Shown here piece by piece: positions 4,274 to 24,000 of a stretch of 24,000 nt of DNA. Under the pieces are notes generated by a model. That model had not been told where the DNA came from. It saw only the letters and a program-made list of their open reading frames with translations, and ran no database searches. The position numbers and the translations under genes were made by a program. The stretch is from Enterococcus thailandicus (lineage in GTDB: Bacteria > Bacillota > Bacilli > Lactobacillales > Enterococcaceae), in NCBI RefSeq assembly GCF_001886265.1, contig NZ_JXLE01000002.1, forward strand, positions 1-24,000, in the 5' to 3' direction. Positions within the stretch are counted from its first letter, which is position 1; each line of letters begins with the position of its first letter.

Positions 4274-4672
4274 CGGTGGTCCTCCCTAAATGTTTTTGTA
4301 ACTGAAATTCTCTCATAGAGGGAAAGTCATTACAATGTTAATGCCTCGAGTGTAACTTTTATTTTTCTTTCGCTCACCAAGGAAAATAACGTATCATTAA
4401 TTAAATAAAAACTACTATCAGCAAATGGATTCACAAGAAGACCGATTCATGAGCTTAAAAAAACAACGGTTATCAAACTGAAACCAGATTCAAAGTCCTT
4501 TATTCGTTAGTTAATTCAAGAAAAAATAAATGAAACTAGCATTAATGAACGGCAAAAAAGAAGGTGATGAATTTGGTTTGAATAAAGAAAAATGATTCAG
4601 GTAAAATAACTCAAAACGATTTTAAAGGTAGAAAAGAAGTGAGTAAATAAAAAACATTTAAAAAGAAAGGGC

Positions 4673-15386: not shown

Positions 15387-15553
15387 TATTCAAAGTAAAA
15401 ATCCACACTTTTTTTGGACTAATTGTATAAAGTTTATCAAATCATCAGCAAACAATGTTTTTCTATTTCTTGTATCTTGATAAAAATAACTATCAAGATG
15501 GGCATATACATGTGCAAATCTTCATTTGAATAAATTTTCATGTTATTTTTATG

Positions 15554-15582
15554 TTGACAAAGTAAAACTTACTTGATAAAGT
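15554..15582 (+). promoter_or_regulatory. promoter of the zinc-starvation operon
   Basis: TTGACA (15554-15559), a 17-nt spacer that includes a TG extended -10 element (15574-15575), then TAAAGT (15577-15582). Confidence 0.55.
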
Positions 15583-15591
15583 GTCGTTGTC

Positions 15592-15612
15592 AAATCGTAA
15601 CGATTACGTTTT
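15592..15612. promoter_or_regulatory. Zur box (zinc uptake regulator operator)
   Basis: AAATCGTAACGATTACGTTTT compared with the Firmicute Zur consensus AAATCGTAATNATTACGATTT gives 2 mismatches. It lies immediately downstream of the -10 and upstream of Zn-independent ribosomal paralogs. Confidence 0.8.
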
Positions 15613-15650
15613 GCTATAGACAAATCGAAAAAAAAGGAGTGTCACCACTT

Positions 15651-15920
15651 ATGGCTAAAAAAGCAAAAATCGCGCGAGCAAGGAAACAACAAGAGTTGAT
15701 TGAGCAGTATGCAGAAATCCGACTTCAGTTAAAGACTGCCAATGATTATGAAGGTTTGGCAAAGCTACCCAAAAATGCGAACCCAAATCGTTTGAAACGA
15801 CGCGATCAAATAGATGGCAGATCTCGGGGGTACATGCAAAAATTTGGTATGTCCAGGATAAAGTTCCGAGAATTAGCGCTTCAAGGTTTGATACCTGGAG
15901 TAAAAAAAGCAAGTTGGTAA
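15651..15920 (+). CDS. rpsN: ribosomal protein S14, long zinc-independent (C-minus) paralog (89 aa)
   Basis: [24 protein letters not shown]...IPGVKKASW is a canonical S14. It has no Cys residues and the 89-aa long form. GGAG SD upstream. The track's 26-aa N-terminal extension is spurious. Confidence 0.9.
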
Positions 15921-15952
15921 AAAAGAAGAAAAGAAATCTGGAGGAATAAAAA

Positions 15953-16126
15953 ATGGCAGTTCCAGCAAGAAAAACATCAAAAGCAAAGAAAAAATTGCGC
16001 AGAGCGCATTTAAAAATAGCAAAACCTGAAATTTCATTTGATGAAGAATTAGGCGATTATCGTCGTAGCCACCATGTTTCACTTAAAGGTTATTATAAAG
16101 GACGTAAAGTAAGCGGCAAAGAATAA
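15953..16126 (+). CDS. rpmF: ribosomal protein L32, zinc-independent (C-minus) paralog (57 aa); not in the supplied ORF track
   Basis: My own translation: [57 protein letters not shown]. It has the canonical L32 N-terminus, and the CxxC...CxxC zinc-ribbon cysteines are all replaced. GGAGGA SD at 15940-15945. Confidence 0.88.
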
Positions 16127-16138
16127 GGGAGGATTAGA

Positions 16139-16516
16139 ATGAACATTATTTATCCACCACTAGTTGAACAAAGCTTCCAATTTTATCAGAAAAATAGTAA
16201 CGAAGACTTCAGTAAAACGGATCTTTATCGTTCAATGGTCGCTAATCAGATTATTACTGAGAATGGTAATCCAACAGTCGAAGCAATTGAAAGAGGACTT
16301 GTTCGAGATTTTTATGAGGAACAGGATCTTTCGTTTGAAGAATTTTTAGCAATTTATCCAATTTTTACTACGTATGAAACAGAACTTTTTCAAAAAATTG
16401 ATGGTTTTTGGGAGATACCAGTTTCATTGAAAAATGAATTGATGATCCAACTTGAGCAAGGGAAATTTAACTATGATGAACAGGTTCAAGTTGAACAGTT
16501 TTTATCAGAAAGATAA
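16139..16516 (+). CDS. hypothetical acidic protein (125 aa) within the Zur operon
   Basis: GGGAGGA SD at 16127-16133. Tightly packed between the rpmF and rpmG paralogs. No Cys, no His clusters, and no recognisable family. Confidence 0.6.
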
Positions 16517-16538
16517 ATCAGAAATGAAGGTGAAACGA

Positions 16539-16688
16539 TTGAGACAAACAATTATTCTAGCATGCGAAGAAACAGGTGAACGAATTTATTTAACAAGTAA
16601 AAATAAACGAAATACACCTGAACGTTTAGTACTAAAAAAATATTCACCTAAATTACGTCGGCGTGCAATTTTTAAAGAGATGAAGTAA
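16539..16688 (+). CDS. rpmG: ribosomal protein L33, zinc-independent (C-minus) paralog (49 aa from TTG 16539; alternative ATG at 16524)
   Basis: [49 protein letters not shown] aligns with L33 (MRVNITLACTECGERNY...KKYCP...). Only one of the four zinc cysteines is retained. The longer ORF in the track (16452) overlaps the preceding gene. Confidence 0.85.
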
Positions 16689-16707
16689 GCATTTTTGAAG
16701 AAGAGAG

Positions 16708-17763
16708 GTGATTTCTTTGGGAATACCGATAACAATCGTATCCGGCTTTTTAGGAGCTGGAAAAACAACCTTGATTAATCAGGCATTAAACGCGACTGAG
16801 CTACCAAGAGAAGAAATAATTATTATTGAAAATGAGGTTGGCCAAACAGGAATCGACCACGAACTCTTACTGCACACCAAGGAACATGTCCTGCAATTAA
16901 ACAACGGTTGCATGTGTTGTAGCCTGAGAGAAGATTTGATAACAACGTTAGCAAGTATTGAAGAAGTAACCAAAGAATGGCAAGTTCCTTTGTCACAAAT
17001 TATTGTTGAAACAACAGGAATTGCTGATCCTCAGCCAATTATTCAAACTATTTTAACTACACCTGTTCTGCGAAATACCTATTATATTGATAGTCTTTTA
17101 ACTGTTGTGGATAGTCAAAATAGTTCGATGTATCAAAATGAACCTGTCAGTCTGAAACAAATCGCATTGGCGGATCGAATTTTCTTTGCTTTAAAAGAAG
17201 GAGATACTGTCAGCAATTGTTCAGAAATACTAGCAAGATTGATCGAAATCAATCCATTAGCTGATTTTATTTATTTTTCGGAAACAGCGCCGATTTCTGC
17301 AACCGACTTTTTTCACTTAGACAAATTTCAGGCGACCGAAGTGTTAAACGAGCCGGTAGCAACCCAAACTGAAATGGAATTGACGAATGAGTCGCATCAC
17401 AGAGAACATCACCACAAAGTTCATTTACAGGGTCACACACATGCAACAACTGTTCATCAACAGAACAATCATGGTTTTCAAACCGTTTTGTTGACTGCAA
17501 ATAGCGAATTAAATGAAGCCGCATTAATACGTTGGATTGATTGGTTATTATTTTTTAATCAAGAGTTGTATCGTTTCAAAGGAATTGTTGTGCTAGAAAA
17601 TCGTGAATTGGCAGTTGCTGTACAAGGCGTTAATCAGCAAGTTCGCTTTCAACTGACTCCACTAGAAAAATCAACGACAAAAATCGTACTCATTGGAAAA
17701 AATTTAGCATCAAAAGAAATAGAAGAAACCTTTAATCAATTGTGCATTGCTTATAAACAGTAA
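16708..17763 (+). CDS. COG0523 (CobW/ZagA/YciC-type) GTPase, putative zinc metallochaperone
   Basis: Walker A motif GFLGAGKTT, the CxCC metal motif GCMCCS, and a His-rich insert HHREHHHKVHLQGHTHATTVH. It belongs to the Zur-box operon. The true start may be the TTG at 16717, 9 nt after GAGAGG. Confidence 0.88.
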   Translation: MISLGIPITIVSGFLGAGKTTLINQALNATELPREEIIIIENEVGQTGIDHELLLHTKEHVLQLNNGCMCCSLREDLITTLASIEEVTKEWQVPLSQIIVETTGIADPQPIIQTILTTPVLRNTYYIDSLLTVVDSQNSSMYQNEPVSLKQIALADRIFFALKEGDTVSNCSEILARLIEINPLADFIYFSETAPISATDFFHLDKFQATEVLNEPVATQTEMELTNESHHREHHHKVHLQGHTHATTVHQQNNHGFQTVLLTANSELNEAALIRWIDWLLFFNQELYRFKGIVVLENRELAVAVQGVNQQVRFQLTPLEKSTTKIVLIGKNLASKEIEETFNQLCIAYKQ

Positions 17764-17776
17764 AAAGGAGAAATCA

Positions 17777-17896
17777 ATGGAAAAAACAGACATTTCAAGT
17801 GCGTATCGACGATTAAAAAGTCCAAACATCAAGACAAGAAAACGAGCATTAAAGATTATCAAAGAATATAAACGAAATAAACAGCGAGCTAGTTGA
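17777..17896 (+). CDS. small highly basic ORF (39 aa), unlisted in the ORF track
   Basis: AAAGGAG SD at 17764-17770, 6 nt before the ATG. Translation: MEKTDISSAYRRLKSPNIKTRKRALKIIKEYKRNKQRAS. It fills the whole cobW-adcA gap, and its stop overlaps the alternative ATG of the next gene. Confidence 0.45.
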   Translation: MEKTDISSAYRRLKSPNIKTRKRALKIIKEYKRNKQRAS

Positions 17897-17914
17897 ATGA
17901 AAAGGAGAAATCGA

Positions 17915-19438
17915 ATGAAAAAATGGAAAGTTGGTTTATTTAGCCTACTATTGGTAAGCGTGCTGGGTGCGTGCAGTACGAATGGTCAAACTAGTAAAGA
18001 AACCGGAAAAGAAAAGCTATCAGTTATCACAACTTTTTATCCCATGTATGATTTCACGAAGAACATTGTAGGTGATGAAGGTGAAGTCAAGTTGCTGATT
18101 CCAGCTGGAACGGAGCCACATGATTATGAACCATCTGCTAAAGAAATTGCAAGTATTCATGATGCAGATGTTTTTGTTTATCATAATGAAAATATGGAAA
18201 CTTGGGTGCCACAAGCCGAGAAAAGTTGGAAAAAAGGTTCACCCAATGTAATTAAAGGAACAAATGGGATGGTGTTATTACCTGGAAGTGAAGAAGAACA
18301 CGATCATGACCACGGCGAAGAAGAGCATCATCATGAGTTAGATCCGCACACGTGGGTTTCACCTAAGATGGCGATTAAAGAAGTGACATCAATCAAGGAA
18401 CAGTTAGAACAACTTTATCCCGAGAAAAAGAAAACTTTTGAAACAAATGCAGAAAAGTATCTAACAAAATTAAAAGCACTAGATGAAGAGTATACAGAAA
18501 AATTAAGTGTAGCTAAGCAAAAAAACTTTGTTACGCAACATGCTGCTTTTGGCTACTTAGCCTTAGATTACGGATTGAATCAAGTTCCTATAGCAGGTTT
18601 GTCTCCAGACCAAGAGCCTTCACCAAGTCGCCTAGCTGAGCTAAAAGAATATGTTCAAGAAAATGAGATTAAATACATCTATTTTGAAGAAAATGCTGAG
18701 GATAAAATTGCAAAGACGTTAGCAGATGAAGCGAAAGTTAAACTCGAAGTACTAAACCCTGTCGAAAGTTTAACTAAAGAACAAATAGCAAATGGAGAAG
18801 ATTATCTCTCGGTGATGAAAGAAAATCTGACGGCTTTAGAAAAAACAACAAGCGTTGCAGGCAAAGAAATCAAACCAGAAAACGTAACAGAATCGACTAA
18901 GACGGTTGCCAATGGTTACTTCAAAGATGAGGCAGTCAAAGACCGAACACTAGCTGATTATGCAGGTGAGTGGCAATCACTTTATCCTTTGTTAAAAGAG
19001 GGCGCTTTAGATCAAGTTTTCGACTATAAAGCAAAATTAAACAAAGATAAAACTGCGAAAGAATATAAGTCTTATTATACAGCTGGTTATAAAACAACTG
19101 TTGATAAAATGACGATCACAGATCATACGATTGACTTTGTTGTCGATGGCGAGCACCATCAATATGAATACAACTATGCTGGTTACAAGATTTTAAATTA
19201 TGAAAAGGGAAATCGTGGTGTACGTTTCCTTTTTGAAACGGCTGACAAGGATGCTGGGGAATTTAAATATGTGCAATTTAGCGATCACAATATTGCACCA
19301 GTTAAAGCGGAACATTTCCATGCCTTTTTTGGTGGAGAGAGTCAGCAAAAGCTTTTCAATGAACTAACTAACTGGCCCACTTTTTATCCAGCTGATTTGA
19401 CTTCGCAAGAAATCGCACAGGAAATGATTGCACATTAA
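17915..19438 (+). CDS. adcA: zinc ABC-transporter substrate-binding lipoprotein, AdcA type (ZnuA domain fused to a C-terminal ZinT/YodA domain)
   Basis: Lipobox VLGAC and the His-rich loop EEEHDHDHGEEEHHHELDPH typical of ZnuA/AdcA. The C-terminal roughly 180 aa (GYFKDEAVKDRTLADYAGEWQSLYP...HFHAFFGG) are ZinT-like. AAGGAG SD at 17901-17906 before the ATG at 17915. Confidence 0.88.
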   Translation: MKKWKVGLFSLLLVSVLGACSTNGQTSKETGKEKLSVITTFYPMYDFTKNIVGDEGEVKLLIPAGTEPHDYEPSAKEIASIHDADVFVYHNENMETWVPQAEKSWKKGSPNVIKGTNGMVLLPGSEEEHDHDHGEEEHHHELDPHTWVSPKMAIKEVTSIKEQLEQLYPEKKKTFETNAEKYLTKLKALDEEYTEKLSVAKQKNFVTQHAAFGYLALDYGLNQVPIAGLSPDQEPSPSRLAELKEYVQENEIKYIYFEENAEDKIAKTLADEAKVKLEVLNPVESLTKEQIANGEDYLSVMKENLTALEKTTSVAGKEIKPENVTESTKTVANGYFKDEAVKDRTLADYAGEWQSLYPLLKEGALDQVFDYKAKLNKDKTAKEYKSYYTAGYKTTVDKMTITDHTIDFVVDGEHHQYEYNYAGYKILNYEKGNRGVRFLFETADKDAGEFKYVQFSDHNIAPVKAEHFHAFFGGESQQKLFNELTNWPTFYPADLTSQEIAQEMIAH

Positions 19439-19456
19439 GACCTATTTATGACAAAT

Positions 19457-19488: not shown

Positions 19489-20280
19489 TTAGTGTGCGTA
19501 TAAGAAAGCAGATAAGAGATACAAAATAGCAATATGTGCAGGGTAGAAAATATAGAAGAAATACTTCATTCCTTTTCCTTTTTGACCGTTGTAGAGCAAA
19601 ATCGGAACGATTGCAAAAATCATCATCCATTGCGTAGAACCTAAGAAAAAGTAAATGGTTGCAACTACTACGATCATTAAACACTGGATTTGCCGATTAT
19701 TTCTAGCGAGATACAGTAAAGGAATCAGCAGTACCATGACATTGTTTTCTGCCAAAAGTAACGCTGGTAAAGTCGCAGTAATTGTTAAAAAAACAAATTG
19801 ATTTTGGATAATCATGGGGCTTTCCATTAATAGTGGTAATAAGAAAGAAAACAGGATTGGAAGAATAAATAGAATCGTCCCACCAAGCATTTTTTTCAAA
19901 TTAGTTGCATGTTTCCCTTCGACAAAAAGATCAATAGCGAACATCATCAGTGTACCTATAAAAAGATCTCTAAAAATATTGTTCATCAAAACAACTTGAT
20001 CATACCCCACAAGTTTTTCGAGAGTAAAGGTAAATAAGGTCATCAGAACCATCGACAGGTAGAGTCTTGACATATATTTTTTCTTGTTGTGCGTATGACT
20101 AAAGCCAATAACACTGACAAAAAAGAAAATTGTTGCGACAGGTCTACCAAACCAGTCTAGCCAGTTAGGTGCTCCAAATGGAACAAACATCTGATGGATA
20201 TGATCAATAAACATTAAGACAATGCCTAACATTTTTAAATCAAATGTTGATAGGCCTTTTTTGGGTGTATCAATCGTCAA
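19489..20280 (-). CDS. TraX-family integral membrane protein (263 aa)
   Basis: The N-terminal LKMLGIVLMFIDHI motif is typical of the TraX family, with about 8 hydrophobic helices. GGAGGA SD upstream at complement of 20289-20294. Confidence 0.6.
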   Translation of the reverse strand: MTIDTPKKGLSTFDLKMLGIVLMFIDHIHQMFVPFGAPNWLDWFGRPVATIFFFVSVIGFSHTHNKKKYMSRLYLSMVLMTLFTFTLEKLVGYDQVVLMNNIFRDLFIGTLMMFAIDLFVEGKHATNLKKMLGGTILFILPILFSFLLPLLMESPMIIQNQFVFLTITATLPALLLAENNVMVLLIPLLYLARNNRQIQCLMIVVVATIYFFLGSTQWMMIFAIVPILLYNGQKGKGMKYFFYIFYPAHIAILYLLSAFLYAH

Positions 20281-20572
20281 AAATAATTCCTCCTAACTAA
20301 TAATAACTATATGTTAACAATATGATTGATTGAAAGGCTAGTGAAATAATATAGAACGAGCGAACAATTTTGTCACAAGAGATTTTTTTGTTATCGATCA
20401 TATACTGGTCTTTATGAGGAAAGAGTTGGGTAGTTGGGGTAGTGAATTCATGGTATACTAATAAAAAAGATCCTTGAAATCTAAATAAATAGATACCAAT
20501 AGAAGCATCCAAACTGAAGCCTTGCTATGGGCAAATAGTGCGAGTACGGAACCTCAAAAATTTTGAGCCGAG
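20281..20572 (+). promoter_or_regulatory. putative CRISPR leader
   Basis: AT-rich 292 bp directly abutting the first repeat. Extended -10 element TGGTATACT at 20451-20459. The leader-repeat junction reads ...AATTTTGAGCCGAG|GTTTTAGAGC, and the CGAG ending resembles what I recall of S. pyogenes-class II-A leaders. Confidence 0.5.
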
Positions 20573-21267
20573 GTTTTAGAGCTATGCTGTTTTGAATGCT
20601 TCCAAAACTACGGAAGACTGGATTCGAACCAGAGATATGTTTTAGAGCTATGCTGTTTTGAATGCTTCCAAAACGCTTTTTAGTCGTCTAAATGAAAAGC
20701 TTACGTTTTAGAGCTATGCTGTTTTGAATGCTTCCAAAACTACGGAAGACTGGATTCGAACCAGAGATATGTTTTAGAGCTATGCTGTTTTGAATGCTTC
20801 CAAAACGCTTTTTAGTCGTCTAAATGAAAAGCTTACGTTTTAGAGCTATGCTGTTTTGAATGCTTCCAAAACTATTTGTCATTGAACTTCTCTTACGTTC
20901 CTGTTTTAGAGCTATGCTGTTTTGAATGCTTCCAAAACGGGAGGTTTTATCAAAACAAACTTCCTATTGTTTTAGAGCTATGCTGTTTTGAATGCTTCCA
21001 AAACATATATGTTTTTCCTACTGTGAATACATTTGTTTTAGAGCTATGCTGTTTTGAATGCTTCCAAAACTATCTTGTTTACATCTATTATAATAGCATG
21101 GTTTTAGAGCTATGCTGTTTTGAATGCTTCCAAAACCTTTCATTTTTCCGATAATGTCATTTGCTGTTTTAGAGCTATGCTGTTTTGAATGCTTCCAAAA
21201 CTTACAAGTTGAATGGTTGGCTAATTGGATTGTTTTAGAGCTATGCTGTTTTGAATGCTTCCAAAAC
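20573..21267 (+). CRISPR. type II-A-style CRISPR array, 11 identical 36-nt repeats and 10 spacers (8 unique)
   Basis: Repeat GTTTTAGAGCTATGCTGTTTTGAATGCTTCCAAAAC starts at 20573, 20639, 20705, 20771, 20837, 20903, 20969, 21035, 21101, 21166 and 21232. Spacers are 30 nt, with one of 29 nt. The repeat is nearly identical to the S. pyogenes II-A repeat GTTTTAGAGCTATGCTGTTTTGAATGGTCCCAAAAC. Confidence 0.97.
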
Positions 21268-21288
21268 AATAGAAAAGAAGGTTTTTCA

Positions 21289-21477
21289 ATGCTCTACCTG
21301 TGTATATTTAGGGTATACTCAAAATATACGATAATGTTCTATTTATTGATAATTATCTTCCTTAATTTTGAAATGGCAGAAATCGATATCAATGAGAGGA
21401 TAGATTTTTTCTTAATCCTAAAAAAATTGAACAACAATTTCCGGAGTTTTTTAAAATCTCTGAGTTGTACTATTTGA
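21289..21477 (+). CDS. possible small membrane ORF (62 aa) at the left edge of the array-embedded insert
   Basis: ATG preceded by GAAGG 8 nt upstream, with one hydrophobic helix (IMFYLLIIIFLNF). The region is very AT-rich and could be non-coding. Confidence 0.2.
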   Translation: MLYLCIFRVYSKYTIMFYLLIIIFLNFEMAEIDINERIDFFLILKKLNNNFRSFLKSLSCTI

Positions 21478-21922
21478 AGGGAAAAATATGTTGGATACTA
21501 GAGAGTATGAGCTAAAGCTGCAGCAGCCGTAGATTTTCCTTGTAAAAAGGTTATTAAAGGTTTAAAAAGAACGCTTGAAAGAAATTGGAATACCAGTTCC
21601 AGAAATATATCAAGATAAAATAAAAAAGATGTAGCCGAACAAATGCTTTGAAGAGGGTATAAATCCTGAAGATTATTAGGCTATAAGATTATATAGTTAA
21701 ATATTAAATGTTATTTTTTGTGAGTGTACATACTTAATAAACCTTGTTTTTTAGCGTGTTTAGGTATTGAAATTGAATTATCAATAAATTTTAAAAATGT
21801 TATCGTAATGACACCGATTTATAATTATCCCTTTTTCTAAATATCATGCATACATTTCCAAATTAGTTTATTATACTTTTTGTGAACGTTTACAAACTAA
21901 ATGAATGAATGGAGAATATCAA

Positions 21923-22531
21923 ATGAAAAACGATGTTGGTAATTATTCTAAAAGTGTCTATGCTTTATTTTTCGCAATTCTTTTATGTTTAGGTATATTT
22001 TCACCCACGGTATCAATAGTGGTGGCTGCAGATGAACTTACTGTACCTGAAGCAAGTTCAACAGAAGTGGTAAAAAATGCAAAATGGGTTGCATTAGAAC
22101 AAGAAATGGCTACACCACAATATCAAGTAGCTTCAAAAGCTAACCCTGAAGGCACTGCAAGATATATTCTTAATAAATATGAGGGAGCAGAAGCATTCGC
22201 TGCGGGATTAGGTCAACGTATACAAAATGGCGGTTGGAATGTATATTATAATTCAGCTTCGGGCAAGCAAACTGCTCGTACATCTTATAACGGTATGTAT
22301 GTTGCAGCAGCAGGAGCCGGTAGTCTATCTACCGTATTAGCAAAATTTAGTGCTTCTGGTGGTGCAGTAATTGTTGGAGCTGCAGCTCTTTTAGCAGGTA
22401 TAGCAATGGGTGCACTTAGCGTTTACTCGAAAGATTGCAGAGATAACATTGATAATCATGGAAATACTGGTACTGCACGGATTACACTTACTGAATCAAG
22501 ATGGTCTTCACAATATGATCATCGTTGGTAA
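21923..22531 (+). CDS. secreted/membrane-active protein with Sec signal peptide and Gly/Ala-zipper hydrophobic region (202 aa); candidate toxin or bacteriocin-like protein
   Basis: GGAGA SD at 21911-21915, 7 nt before the ATG. Signal peptide MKNDVGNYSKSVYALFFAILLCLGIFSPTVSIVVA|ADE. The mature part has a hydrophobic GxxxG/AxxxA-rich stretch, GMYVAAAGAGSLSTVLAKFSASGGAVIVGAAALLAGIAMGALSVY. No family recognised. Confidence 0.7.
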   Translation: MKNDVGNYSKSVYALFFAILLCLGIFSPTVSIVVAADELTVPEASSTEVVKNAKWVALEQEMATPQYQVASKANPEGTARYILNKYEGAEAFAAGLGQRIQNGGWNVYYNSASGKQTARTSYNGMYVAAAGAGSLSTVLAKFSASGGAVIVGAAALLAGIAMGALSVYSKDCRDNIDNHGNTGTARITLTESRWSSQYDHRW

Positions 22532-22550
22532 ATTGATAATTTAAACTGGA

Positions 22551-22607
22551 AAACAATCTCTGTCTTCATTTATTGTTGCAATAAATAGAATAACAGAGGT
22601 TGTTTTT
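22551..22607 (+). terminator. structured terminator/attenuator between the two cassette genes
   Basis: A 13-bp outer stem AAACAATCTCTGT / ACAGAGGTTGTTT (one G-U pair) encloses an inner 8-bp hairpin ATTTATTG-ttg-CAATAAAT. It ends in a T-run, and TATAAT follows at 22610-22615. Confidence 0.45.
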
Positions 22608-22628
22608 AATATAATGAGGAGGTGGGCG

Positions 22629-22886
22629 ATGAAATCTTTGGGTTTTATTAGACTTTTTCAATTTTTTCTTTTAATTGCAAGTCTTTTTTTTGCTATGAAA
22701 CACAATTTATTGTTAGCTTTGTTTATCTGGGCGCTATCTGGTGGGTTAAGTTTCACTGTCCCCCAAAAATATCGTTTCCCTTTTTGGTCACCTTATAAAG
22801 GCCTATTATTTCCAGTATGGATTGAAAATATTATGGATTTAGTCATAACAATAGGCGTGCTATTATTGGTAATATTTTTTTCATGA
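22629..22886 (+). CDS. small polytopic membrane protein (85 aa, about 3 TM helices); candidate immunity/partner protein
   Basis: GAGGAGG SD at 22616-22622, 6 nt before the ATG. Three hydrophobic segments. The stop at 22884-22886 lies 3 nt before the degenerate CRISPR repeat. Confidence 0.6.
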   Translation: MKSLGFIRLFQFFLLIASLFFAMKHNLLLALFIWALSGGLSFTVPQKYRFPFWSPYKGLLFPVWIENIMDLVITIGVLLLVIFFS

Positions 22887-22889
22887 TTT

Positions 22890-22925
22890 GTTTTAGTGCT
22901 ATGCTGTTTTGAATGCTTCCCAAAT
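22890..22925 (+). CRISPR. degenerate (terminal-type) CRISPR repeat displaced 1,622 bp from the array
   Basis: GTTTTAGTGCTATGCTGTTTTGAATGCTTCCCAAAT matches the array repeat at 33 of 36 positions, with mismatches at positions 8, 32 and 36. It has the same orientation as the array. Confidence 0.9.
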
Positions 22926-23043
22926 AATAATAGCTGTGTTTATCAATGGTACCCAACTGAGCCATTTGAAGGAAACGAGTTTGCAGTAATTATCCAATAT
23001 TCGTCAGAAAAGTATCAACTGATTTTTTGATACCAATTTCAAC

Positions 23044-23075
23044 AAAAAACCACCAACTAGTTGGTGGTTTTTTTG
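23044..23075. terminator. bidirectional rho-independent terminator
   Basis: Perfect palindrome ACCACCAACT/AGTTGGTGGT flanked by an A6 run and a T7 run. It lies downstream of both the degenerate repeat (plus strand) and the ABC transporter gene (minus strand). Confidence 0.85.
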
Positions 23076-23234
23076 TTGGGTAAATATTTGGGAATAACTA
23101 ACATGAGAAGATATCATACGAATAAATTGAATTGGAAGATAGGGATAATTTATTCGTACAATATTATTATAACGTATTAAAAACGCTTTTATAATTTGTT
23201 TTTGCTATAGCTATTATTATCTTTTTTACTTAAA

Positions 23235-24000
23235 TCAAGTTGCCTGAAATTGGCTATTGTAAAGTGAACGATAGAGTGTTGGACGTTTCAACAGTTGCTT
23301 ATGCGTTCCTTTTTCAATGATGTCGCCCTTATCCATCACTAAAATCAAATCAGCATTTTCGATGGTGGAAAGGCGGTGAGCAATGACGAAACTTGTCCGA
23401 TTTTGGGTCAACGAGTTCATTGCTTCTTGAATTTGTAATTCTGTGCGAGTATCCACACTAGAAGTTGCTTCATCCAAAATAACCACTGGTGGATTTGCCA
23501 AAATGACACGAGCAATGGTCAACAATTGTTGCTGCCCTTGTGAGAGGCCCCCACCATTATCACTTGTGACGATGGAATCATAGCCATTAGGAAGCGTCAG
23601 GATAAAGTGATGACACTGAGCGATTTTAGCTGCTTGGATAATTTCTTCTCGTGTTGCATCCATTTTTCCATATGCGATATTTTCAGCAATCGTACCTTCA
23701 AATAACCAAGTATTTTGTAGGACCATTCCAAATAGGGAGCGAAGATTTTCTCTTGGAAGATCAGTGGTTGGAATGCCATCGAATTCGATTTGGCCAGATT
23801 CGATGTCGTAAAATCGCATAAGTAGATTGACTAGCGTTGTTTTGCCTGCGCCGGTTGGTCCAACAATGGCAATCTTTTGGTTTGCTTTCGCATCAAAGTC
23901 AACTTTTTTCATCAATGTTTTGTCGGGGGAGTAGCCAAAGCGAACATCCTTGAATCGGATATTTCCAGCAGGATGTTGAATGGTTGTTCGACTTGTATCT
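23235..24000 (-). CDS. ABC exporter, fused permease/ATPase type (MDR-like); 3' part only, continues beyond the window
   Basis: Walker A GPTGAGKTT, ABC signature LSQGQQQ, Walker B VVILDEATS, and the H-loop AHR. The frame stays open upstream of the track's Met to position 24000 (...IQHPAGNIRFKDVRFGYSPDKTLM...). Confidence 0.9.
   Translation of the reverse strand, partial: DTSRTTIQHPAGNIRFKDVRFGYSPDKTLMKKVDFDAKANQKIAIVGPTGAGKTTLVNLLMRFYDIESGQIEFDGIPTTDLPRENLRSLFGMVLQNTWLFEGTIAENIAYGKMDATREEIIQAAKIAQCHHFILTLPNGYDSIVTSDNGGGLSQGQQQLLTIARVILANPPVVILDEATSSVDTRTELQIQEAMNSLTQNRTSFVIAHRLSTIENADLILVMDKGDIIEKGTHKQLLKRPTLYRSLYNSQFQAT

Follow-up and report, generated by a model that had tools for sequence, protein, structure and literature searches.

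IS insertions occur in CRISPR arrays, IS6110 in the M. tuberculosis DR locus being one example. Bacteriocin and polymorphic-toxin modules form another general class, in which a small membrane immunity protein is encoded and in which orphan immunity genes occur. In enterococci, orphan type II-A arrays have been described at CRISPR2 of E. faecalis and also in E. hirae and E. thailandicus (PMC5341189, PMC10165109); cas9-cas1-cas2-csn2 has been reported elsewhere in the last species. In S. pyogenes, prophage ΦAP1.1, which bears an integrase, integrates into type II-A CRISPR repeats and in doing so splits the repeat at an att core of 8 bp (Varble et al., bioRxiv 10.1101/2020.10.09.333658).

The DNA considered here (the window) is a stretch of 24,000 nucleotides of E. 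thailandicus, positions 1 to 24,000 of contig NZ_JXLE01000002.1. Its array shares with the other enterococcal orphan arrays a type II-A repeat (DR5, PMC10165109), a conserved chromosomal site, and the lack of adjacent cas genes. However, it differs from them in having 1.6 kb of gene-bearing DNA before its terminal repeat, and no report of such a separation was found in the literature searched on these arrays. As in the ΦAP1.1 case, a type II-A array has foreign DNA within it, in many instances at its decayed terminal repeat, and rearrangement or spacer loss can follow. The arrangement resembles the IS cases in that a gene-bearing insertion is tolerated within an array and is clonally inherited.

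In the array itself (20573 to 21267, + strand), 10 spacers of 29-30 nt separate 11 perfect copies of a 36-nt repeat; spacers 1 and 2 are duplicated, and spacer 1 matches Enterococcus phages. When up to 3 mismatches are allowed, the window holds 12 copies of the repeat, all on the + strand (the 11 perfect copies and one with 3 mismatches), compared with 0 in 100 shuffles of the window, and Rfam CRISPR-DR22 gives 11 matches in the array. The longest ORF in the window is at most 613 aa; thus, cas9 is absent from it. To the left lies a gene for a traX-family membrane protein (19489 to 20280, - strand; Pfam TraX, 1.5e-17). Sources of the exact TraX protein name Enterococcus thailandicus, and an 84%-identical orthologue adjoins an uninterrupted array in Ca. 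E. courvalinii. The CRISPR leader (20281 to 20572, + strand) ends in ...CCGAG, abutting GTTTTAGAGC of repeat 1. It is orthologous to the leaders of two sister-species loci, those of Ca. E. courvalinii and Enterococcus sp. DIV0660C (L024 and L046), and in the alignment hardly any position varies among the window and both loci over the ~170 bp that adjoin repeat 1.

According to a preliminary description of this DNA, the last perfect repeat ends at 21267 and the next copy, in the same orientation and matching at 33 of 36 positions, lies at 22890 to 22925, and every one of these coordinates was confirmed. The mismatches in this decayed terminal repeat (GTTTTAGTGCTATGCTGTTTTGAATGCTTCCCAAAT, + strand) are A8T, A32C, and C36T, so that two of the three do fall at the 3' end, as had been noted. 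The distance to it from the previous repeat is 1,622 nt, rather than the usual one spacer length (~30 nt). The contention that this DNA is bracketed as a spacer would be is supported by empty sites at the orthologous traX/adcA-array-ABC locus in the two sister species. In both, a perfect repeat, a 30-nt spacer, the decayed terminal repeat, and a ~310-bp trailer leading to the ABC-transporter gene are contiguous. The last spacer is an ordinary one of 30 nt, different in each species, and the terminal repeats end in ...CCCAATT (L024) and ...TTCTTCCCCAAT (L046). Between 22890 and the ABC-transporter stop codon the window is ~90% identical to these loci in the alignment. Since the homology sets in precisely at position 22890, the lone repeat is the array's own, native terminal repeat, and the 1,622 bp before it fills the position of the last spacer.

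The trailer (22926 to 23234) is ~90% identical in both sister species. An inverted-repeat search located within it a perfect 15+15-nt hairpin followed by T's (23044 to 23073), a putative terminator shared by the array and the convergent ABC operon. To the right is the 3' part of the gene for the ABC transporter, an ATPase/permease fusion (23235 to 24000, - strand; Pfam ABC_tran, 2e-29), whose protein is 99-100% identical in L046 and L024. In other species, too, arrays with this repeat close with a terminal repeat that is decayed at its 3' end and lies one spacer length (mostly 30 nt) after the previous one, and none is interrupted; this holds for the loci that include the trailer end, some 20 of the 26 from other species, and the scan of the genome-contig collection was not exhaustive, since it did not return E. 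thailandicus itself. A single perfect repeat in Enterococcus ratti (L045) was considered as a comparator and set aside as uninformative, for it lies at a different locus.

The segment between the two repeats (21268 to 22889) comprises 637 bp with no credible ORF followed by two + strand ORFs at 21905-22531 and 22614-22886, in good agreement with the ~650 bp of broken frames and two intact same-strand genes first described. The left end, ~300 bp of AT-rich DNA (21268 to 21565), follows the last repeat in identical form in all strains with the window-type (type A) allele. It contains no ORF and has no homology to the E. hirae module described below, to phages, to plasmids, or to other loci, and a metagenome scan with it returned only another copy of the same allele. 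Its first 28-30 nt after 21267 could be a remnant of the old last spacer, which in that case would have begun AATAGAAAAG.... A six-frame comparison of 21268 to 21904 against other cassette loci gave no matches, and a search for hidden decayed repeats within the segment found at best 20 of 36 positions matching, below the shuffled expectation. Next comes a decayed small ORF with in-frame stops (21566 to 21700, + strand), a counterpart of which precedes the module in E. hirae. It has 75% DNA identity to positions 4364-4464 of the E. hirae locus (L047), inside a 62-aa ORF, and its translation, KERLKEIGIPVPEIYQDKIKKM*PNKCFEEGI, pairs with KERLKKIERPIPEVYQKKIKKWLQPNSCFEEGI in E. hirae. Between the two genes an inverted repeat with 14-nt arms, 93% complementary, and a 29-nt loop is followed by a T run (22550 to 22606, + strand). 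It is also kept in the E. hirae module and may act as an attenuator.

The segment encodes no transposase or integrase; its only ORFs are these two, which have no matches in Pfam, NCBIfam, or PHROGs, and it contains no recombinase, target duplication, or split att core, and, apart from the CRISPR repeats, no convincing terminal inverted or direct repeats. Thus, unlike IS insertions, the E. thailandicus segment has no transposase, inverted repeats, or target-site duplication, and unlike the ΦAP1.1 case it has no integrase, leaves both flanking repeats intact and full length, is just 1.6 kb, and replaces a spacer. The observation that the segment is richer in AT than its surroundings holds, but only slightly (32.2% G+C versus 36.4% for the window), and it fails as a sign of foreign origin. 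The lower G+C comes wholly from the 637-bp non-coding part (27% G+C), which resembles other intergenic DNA here, such as the trailer (27.8%), whereas the large gene has 38.6% G+C. Consequently, composition is no evidence of foreignness.

The large gene (21923 to 22531, + strand) encodes 202 aa from its probable true start at 21923, or 208 aa from the ATG at 21905. The N-terminal segment of the protein resembles a signal peptide, its core is conserved, and it contains a hydrophobic hairpin rich in Ala, Gly, and Ser, with hydropathy segments at residues 5-41 (ending VVA/ADE) and 137-169; an export signal is predicted. Its family comprises 18 clusters among 5.8 billion proteins and, by profile search, 37 representatives among 1.8 billion, none annotated, and every match bearing a source name is from Enterococcus. 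The small gene (22629 to 22886, + strand) encodes a membrane protein of 85 aa (90 aa from 22614) with 2-3 segments, the hydrophobic stretches being residues 3-45, with room for two helices, and 59-85; all named members of this family are also from Enterococcus. Its stop codon (22884 to 22886) lies 3 nt short of the terminal repeat, just as reported earlier.

Together the two genes probably encode a Sec-exported, membrane-active toxin and a small membrane immunity protein. This reading is suggested by the signal-peptide-like N-terminus and Ala/Gly-rich hydrophobic hairpin of the large protein, by a gene pair that is fixed in five species, and by the tandem small paralogues of E. mundtii. It is suggested as well by alleles in which the large gene has been lost and the small one retained, and by a lipase-like toxin-type cassette that occupies the same site in another strain (L009), which has neither gene. 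The organization is like that of bacteriocin and polymorphic-toxin modules: a gene for an exported protein whose hydrophobic region is rich in small residues precedes one for a small multi-pass membrane protein, the chromosomal site varies, the small gene has tandem paralogues, and the presumed toxin can be lost while the presumed immunity gene is kept. However, the module differs from that class in that its activity is a prediction and its proteins match no described bacteriocin, toxin, or immunity family in profile searches of Pfam, NCBIfam, PADLOC, PHROGs, and the PDB. An AlphaFold2 model of a module protein (mean pLDDT 51.5) was too poor for a fold search. The assigned role thus rests on context and sequence features.

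In all five species, at unrelated sites, the small gene immediately follows the large one. The closest relative of the module is found in E. hirae between queT and bioY, where DNA identity is 81% over 21655 to 22887 and 75% further left (21566 to 21663); the homology ends 2 nt before the terminal repeat. In E. mundtii 4-5 small paralogues stand in tandem. No CRISPR repeat occurs within ~5 kb of the homologues in E. hirae, E. villorum, E. faecium, and E. mundtii, at thresholds of 10 mismatches (L011-L020) or 9 mismatches (L047-L051). When the 1,622 bp was compared by blastn with plasmids and phages, nothing was found, and neither a tblastn search with the peptide reconstructed from the decayed ORF nor a scan of viral contigs for the repeat gave a match. 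With all of these searches empty, a phage or plasmid origin of the segment was rejected.

At least 12 E. thailandicus assemblies, independent of one another and including four complete chromosomes, have the same arrangement. The 1,622-bp structure occurs in 13 loci, including CP023074.1, CP172877.1, CP172878.1, and CP187330.1, with the large ORF intact in all 13; drafts and metagenome contigs span both junctions with identical structure. Other strains (B and C alleles, for example CP172881.1) carry a 1,228-bp deletion in which the large gene is gone and the small gene is intact. At the deletion junction, repeat positions 1-35 run straight into the sequence from A22495, which opens with the final 33 coding nt and the stop codon of the large gene. 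Since the junction holds the 3' end of the large gene, these alleles derive from a window-type allele by deletion. They have one common junction yet differing adjacent spacers, which requires later spacer loss or recombination. C-type alleles keep A8 in the terminal repeat; therefore, A8T arose after the insertion, and its candidacy as a donor signature was rejected.

The 22 arrays compared contain 118 distinct spacers of 29-31 nt. Strains bearing the insertion have trailer-end spacers in common and differ in their leader-end spacers; the array is still gaining spacers. Empty-site alleles, a matter raised in the preliminary description, exist at the orthologous locus of the two sister species, but none was found within E. 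thailandicus. Consequently, the direction of the event is judged from outgroups and parsimony, which point to a gain in E. thailandicus.

The explanation that fits best is that DNA of chromosomal type, ~1.6 kb long and with a two-gene cargo of the toxin-immunity type, was inserted into, or replaced, the oldest spacer by illegitimate recombination, and that deletion alleles formed later; we consider this account probable. Insertion at the last spacer is also the best fit among the three mechanisms first put forward for the segment. The DNA would have entered or replaced the trailer-most spacer in the lineage leading to E. thailandicus, most likely in a single illegitimate-recombination event rather than by a repeat-directed mechanism, and the native, decayed terminal repeat would thereby have been parted from the last functional one. 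The trailer end would be the cheapest target, only the oldest spacer being lost, and the insertion may have persisted because the remaining spacers keep a perfect downstream repeat for crRNA processing while the leader end still acquires. A later deletion of 1,228 bp, from the last base of a repeat into the 3' end of the large gene, would then have left the small gene only. The right junction lies no more than 2 nt from the spacer-repeat boundary, for which the chance is ~1 in 10 if a 30-bp spacer is hit at random; this leaves some room for a mechanism specific to that boundary.

One such mechanism is repeat-mediated capture, in which a small circle or a linear array fragment carrying the cassette beside a repeat-like sequence enters by a Campbell-type or double crossover, leaving no remnant of a spacer. 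In its favour, both flanking repeats are full length, the direct repeat extends as TT+repeat+AATA on each side, and only 2-3 nt separate the right junction from the repeat. Furthermore, E. thailandicus genomes hold several arrays with the same repeat, 6 of them in strain a523 (PMC5701470), and the S. pyogenes prophage is a precedent for integration at type II-A repeats. However, the cassette has homologues in four other species that lack a nearby repeat, and neither repeat nor cassette was found in the phage, plasmid, and viral collections, which speaks against the earlier proposal of recombination with a repeat borne on a phage or plasmid. The companion proposal, a cassette that exploits repeats as an integration site, fares no better, since no repeat travels with its relatives and ~25 arrays of the same family are uninterrupted. 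Finally, no hybrid-repeat signature is visible, since the right repeat has a decayed 3' end orthologous to the one in the sister species and A8T postdates the insertion. Capture of this kind is therefore unlikely. Another route is off-size integration of a giant 1.6-kb spacer by Cas1-Cas2 (Csn2), after which repeat-repeat recombination would have removed the former last spacer together with the duplicated repeat. It would agree with the right-hand edge of the segment, which is in exact register with the repeat boundary, and with an array that is active in adaptation. It needs two steps, however, and type II-A integrases measure prespacer length; the segment is 1,622 nt, against 29-31 nt for the 118 spacers. 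Moreover, the flanking repeats are not one duplicated repeat, the left being perfect and the right ancestrally decayed, and no case occurs in ~25 other arrays of the repeat family. We regard this route as very improbable.

It is just as improbable that the interrupted state is ancestral and the cassette was later lost from the sister species. The comparison covered two outgroup loci, which gives this idea some room, but loss would have to be so precise that each sister species was left with an ordinary 30-nt spacer of its own, and the contiguous form is found in every other array of the repeat family. The sole deletion seen in E. thailandicus is, in addition, imprecise and leaves a gene remnant. 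As to a mis-join across repeats, short-read contigs do break inside the array (L063-L066); however, the mis-assembly mentioned in the preliminary description is excluded, for four complete chromosomes show the same 1,622-bp structure, as do numerous independent drafts and contigs from metagenomes, and the chance that the structure is artefactual is negligible.

The orientation of the genes makes read-through from the array promoter into the segment possible. A stronger form of this idea, in which the cassette was captured by a process specific to the repeat boundary (off-size Cas1-Cas2 integration or repeat recombination) and is now expressed within the pre-crRNA, seems to us quite unlikely. 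If it were true, the cassette mRNA would be freed by tracrRNA/RNase III cleavage at the flanking repeats, and the terminal repeat would give rise to a crRNA with the final 20 nt of the small gene (22870 to 22889) as its guide. In such a case, expression of the small gene in the deletion alleles would rely on the CRISPR leader promoter.

On the preferred reading, insertion at the oldest spacer by illegitimate recombination, the outgroup empty site shows that an array can hold protein-coding cargo in a spacer slot over the long term while adaptation continues, and that the trailer end of an array is a tolerated landing site. Array-calling software would cut this array short, missing its true terminal repeat. 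Different competition-type cassettes appear to occupy the stretch from the array to the ABC-transporter gene in different strains, and the alleles there form a natural series: toxin and immunity, immunity only, and neither. The protein pair, so far named only from Enterococcus, is a candidate for a new bacteriocin-like toxin-immunity family.

The CRISPR array at this locus consists of 11 perfect repeats (GTTTTAGAGCTATGCTGTTTTGAATGCTTCCAAAAC) with spacers of 29-30 nt on the + strand (20573-21267); no comparable repeat set is expected in the window by chance. A twelfth copy, on the same strand and with three mismatches (A8T, A32C, C36T), is present at 22890-22925. Its sequence is that of the enterococcal type II-A repeat "DR5" (PMC10165109). 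Because an ORF and Pfam survey finds no cas genes within the 24-kb window, the array is an orphan; cas9-cas1-cas2-csn2 loci are reported for E. thailandicus (PMC5341189), and another study gives up to six arrays per genome (PMC5701470). The 1,622-bp segment between the last perfect repeat and the decayed copy (21268-22889) begins with 637 bp that lack a credible ORF (27% G+C). These are followed by two + strand ORFs: 21905-22531 (208 aa; 202 aa from the likely start at 21923) and 22614-22886 (90 aa, or 85 aa as called), which ends with a stop codon 3 nt from the repeat. The repeat scan and ORF calls bear out the facts of array and segment given in the preliminary description. Its argument for foreign origin from AT-richness fails, since the coding parts have an ordinary composition and the non-coding part is like other intergenic DNA in the window. 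The flanking TraX protein and the 85-aa and 202-aa proteins occur as exact sequences in genomes source-named Enterococcus thailandicus. Upstream of traX (~15500-19440) lies a zinc-starvation-type cluster with S14, L32 and L33 ribosomal paralogues, a CobW-family GTPase, an RsaX20-family tiny ORF, and a ZnuA-ZinT fusion lipoprotein.

A repeat scan of species-representative genomes yields 26 loci, ~25 of which are arrays. Wherever the trailer end is captured, a 3'-decayed terminal repeat lies one spacer length (mostly 30 nt) past the last perfect repeat. Two of the 26 loci are at the window's own chromosomal site, with flanking proteins that are 84-100% identical. In Ca. Enterococcus courvalinii (L046), the order is traX, leader, 16 perfect repeats, terminal repeat, and ABC-transporter gene; in Enterococcus sp. 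DIV0660C (L024), it is adcA, leader, 5 perfect repeats, terminal repeat, and ABC-transporter gene. The three leaders align as orthologues, and window positions 22890-23260 align at ~90% identity with the terminal repeat and trailer of both sister loci. This homology starts at exactly the first base of the repeat (22890); 5' of it, the end of the small gene in the window stands in place of the 30-nt spacer and perfect repeat seen in the sister species. Judged from these alignments, the terminal repeat native to the array is 22890-22925, and the slot of the last spacer is filled by the 1,622 bp, as had been proposed. The corresponding empty site, with perfect repeat, 30-nt spacer and terminal repeat contiguous, is present at both sister loci.

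Within E. thailandicus, 13 loci share this exact structure (perfect repeat, AATAGAAAAGAAGG..., 1,622 bp, decayed repeat); among them are four from complete chromosomes, as well as loci from several drafts and from metagenome contigs. Thus, the segment is not the assembly artefact against which the preliminary description had cautioned, and its arrangement is nearly fixed. Another nine loci (eight distinct genomes) have a deletion derivative in which repeat positions 1-35 are joined to A22495 onward. After the last 33 coding nt and stop codon of the large gene come the small gene, still intact, and the terminal repeat, which gives an interval of 394 bp; because this remnant of the large gene persists, these alleles derive from the window-type allele by a 1,228-bp deletion. 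Microhomology at the junction is at most 1-2 nt. The junction is exactly identical in all of the deletion alleles (L001, L002, L006, L010, L056) and is bordered in different strains by five different spacers, which indicates either repeated spacer loss or recombination at the junction, or recurrent deletion. Another strain (L009, GCA_027693845.1) has only three repeats, one perfect and two decayed; after them comes a different cassette on the reverse strand (L009:2900-5710), which encodes proteins of 151 aa, 415 aa (lipase/phospholipase-like), 105 aa, and 86 aa, the last two small and helical. This cassette replaces the gene pair, terminal repeat and trailer, down to the ABC stop codon, and the array-ABC interval is suggested to be a hotspot for competition cassettes. 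The cassette resembles a type VII-secretion-style lipase toxin locus.

The family of the large protein is tiny, with 18 clusters in a set of 5.8 billion proteins and 37 representatives out of 1.8 billion. All hits with a source name are from Enterococcus, and the small membrane protein always comes next after the large one. The nearest relative of the module, between queT and bioY in E. hirae, has 81% DNA identity to window 21655-22887 and 75% to 21566-21663, where the window copy of a 62-aa ORF is decayed; this homology stops 2 nt short of the terminal repeat. For the left 300 bp (21268-21565), no relative is detected in the cassette loci or the E. hirae module, and a metagenome scan finds it only in the same allele. 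The gene pair occupies four unrelated chromosomal sites in E. hirae, E. villorum, E. faecium, and E. mundtii, with no CRISPR repeat near it at any of these loci. A DDE transposase remnant (DDE_Tnp_1_6, 1.3e-10) ~300 bp downstream of the E. hirae module (L047:6162-6452) hints that an IS may have helped to move it. The segment has no match in phage, plasmid, or viral-contig collections; it encodes no recombinase (ORF and Pfam survey), and a repeat search finds no terminal inverted repeats or target duplication.

The locus is most economically explained by one of the three mechanisms originally put forward, a single illegitimate event in the lineage of E. thailandicus that inserted the segment into the trailer-most spacer or replaced this spacer with it. 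The site is permissive: since a type II-A crRNA consists of a spacer and the repeat downstream of it, none of the remaining spacers is deprived of a perfect partner. Spacer acquisition, which takes place at the leader end, is untouched, with which the observed spacer turnover agrees. However, the right junction lies ≤2 nt from the spacer-repeat boundary, a position expected by chance in ~1 in 10 cases, and this keeps two rivals alive. The incoming DNA could have recombined through a repeat-like sequence of its own, or an off-size integration by Cas1-Cas2 could have been followed by loss of one repeat-spacer unit. Recombination is opposed by the A8T change, which is younger than the insertion because C-type deletion alleles retain A8. 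Off-size integration should leave a fresh duplication, which the flanking repeats are not, since the decay of the right repeat is older than the insertion. In addition, no similar case is seen in the ~25 other arrays of this repeat family. Both rivals lack positive support, as do the phage- or plasmid-borne repeat and the repeat-exploiting cassette of the preliminary description. The closest described precedent for foreign DNA in an array is prophage integration into type II-A repeats of S. pyogenes (bioRxiv 10.1101/2020.10.09.333658), which, unlike the insertion in E. thailandicus, involves an integrase and a split repeat.

The array at this locus is active in adaptation: 118 distinct spacers are counted over 22 arrays, and segment-carrying strains have trailer-end spacers in common and different leader-end spacers. 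Spacer 1 (TACGGAAGACTGGATTCGAACCAGAGATAT, 20609-20638) matches large Enterococcus phages (~150 kb), in one record under a tRNA feature. Given its resemblance to a tRNA T-arm, its target may be a phage tRNA gene. A tandem duplication involves spacers 1 and 2 together with their repeats (20566-20829; 132-bp unit, 98-100% identity); in a related strain (L005), the otherwise identical array lacks it. The last ~75 nt of the leader (20500-20572) is near-invariant across the window, L024 and L046 and contains GAAGCATCCAAAC, close to the reverse complement of the repeat's 3' half. It is recognisably similar beside an unrelated one-repeat orphan mini-array of E. ratti (L045:1721-1800; perfect repeat, 30-nt spacer, truncated repeat), located downstream of pyrE at a locus different from the window's. 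Records named "Listeria phage LM 4-11-1/4-14-1" (OR846895.1, OR848241.1 and others), ~72% identical across the whole array, appear to contain type II-A CRISPR arrays and are probably host DNA, not phage.

The 202-aa protein begins with a signal-peptide-like segment and contains a conserved core (…QRIQNGGWNVYYN…GKQTART.YNGMYVA) and an Ala/Gly/Ser-rich hydrophobic hairpin; the motif at its C-terminus (CRD.ID.HGNTGTAR.TLTE.RWS..YD.RW) is invariant. In the 85-aa protein, there are two hydrophobic stretches, a long one at the N-terminus, with room for two helices, and one at the C-terminus. Neither protein matches a known family in Pfam, NCBIfam, PADLOC, PHROGs or PDB, and the AlphaFold2 protein model (mean pLDDT 51.5) is unusable. 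From these sequence features and the loci, a secreted membrane-active toxin with its cognate immunity protein is a plausible candidate role for the pair, if one that falls a little short of probable. It fits with conservation of the pair in five species at variable sites, the 4-5 tandem small paralogues in E. mundtii, the loss of the large gene and retention of the small one in deletion alleles, and the different toxin-like cassette at the same site in L009. The E. mundtii paralogues (L018:5001-7167, L019, L020; 88 and 93 aa) follow a large-gene homologue and resemble an array of orphan immunity genes. As no terminator-like site is found on the + strand from the last repeat to the small gene, read-through from the leader into the module would be possible; since the E. 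hirae copy lacks an upstream array, the module probably has its own promoter.

The sister loci thus provide comparative proof that the original reading of an interrupted array was right. The case is best classed as a fresh variant of something already known, inserted DNA interrupting CRISPR arrays, and does not imply a new mechanism. Its value lies in the clean proof of the interruption, in the evidence that the interrupted array remains active, and in a candidate new toxin-immunity family.
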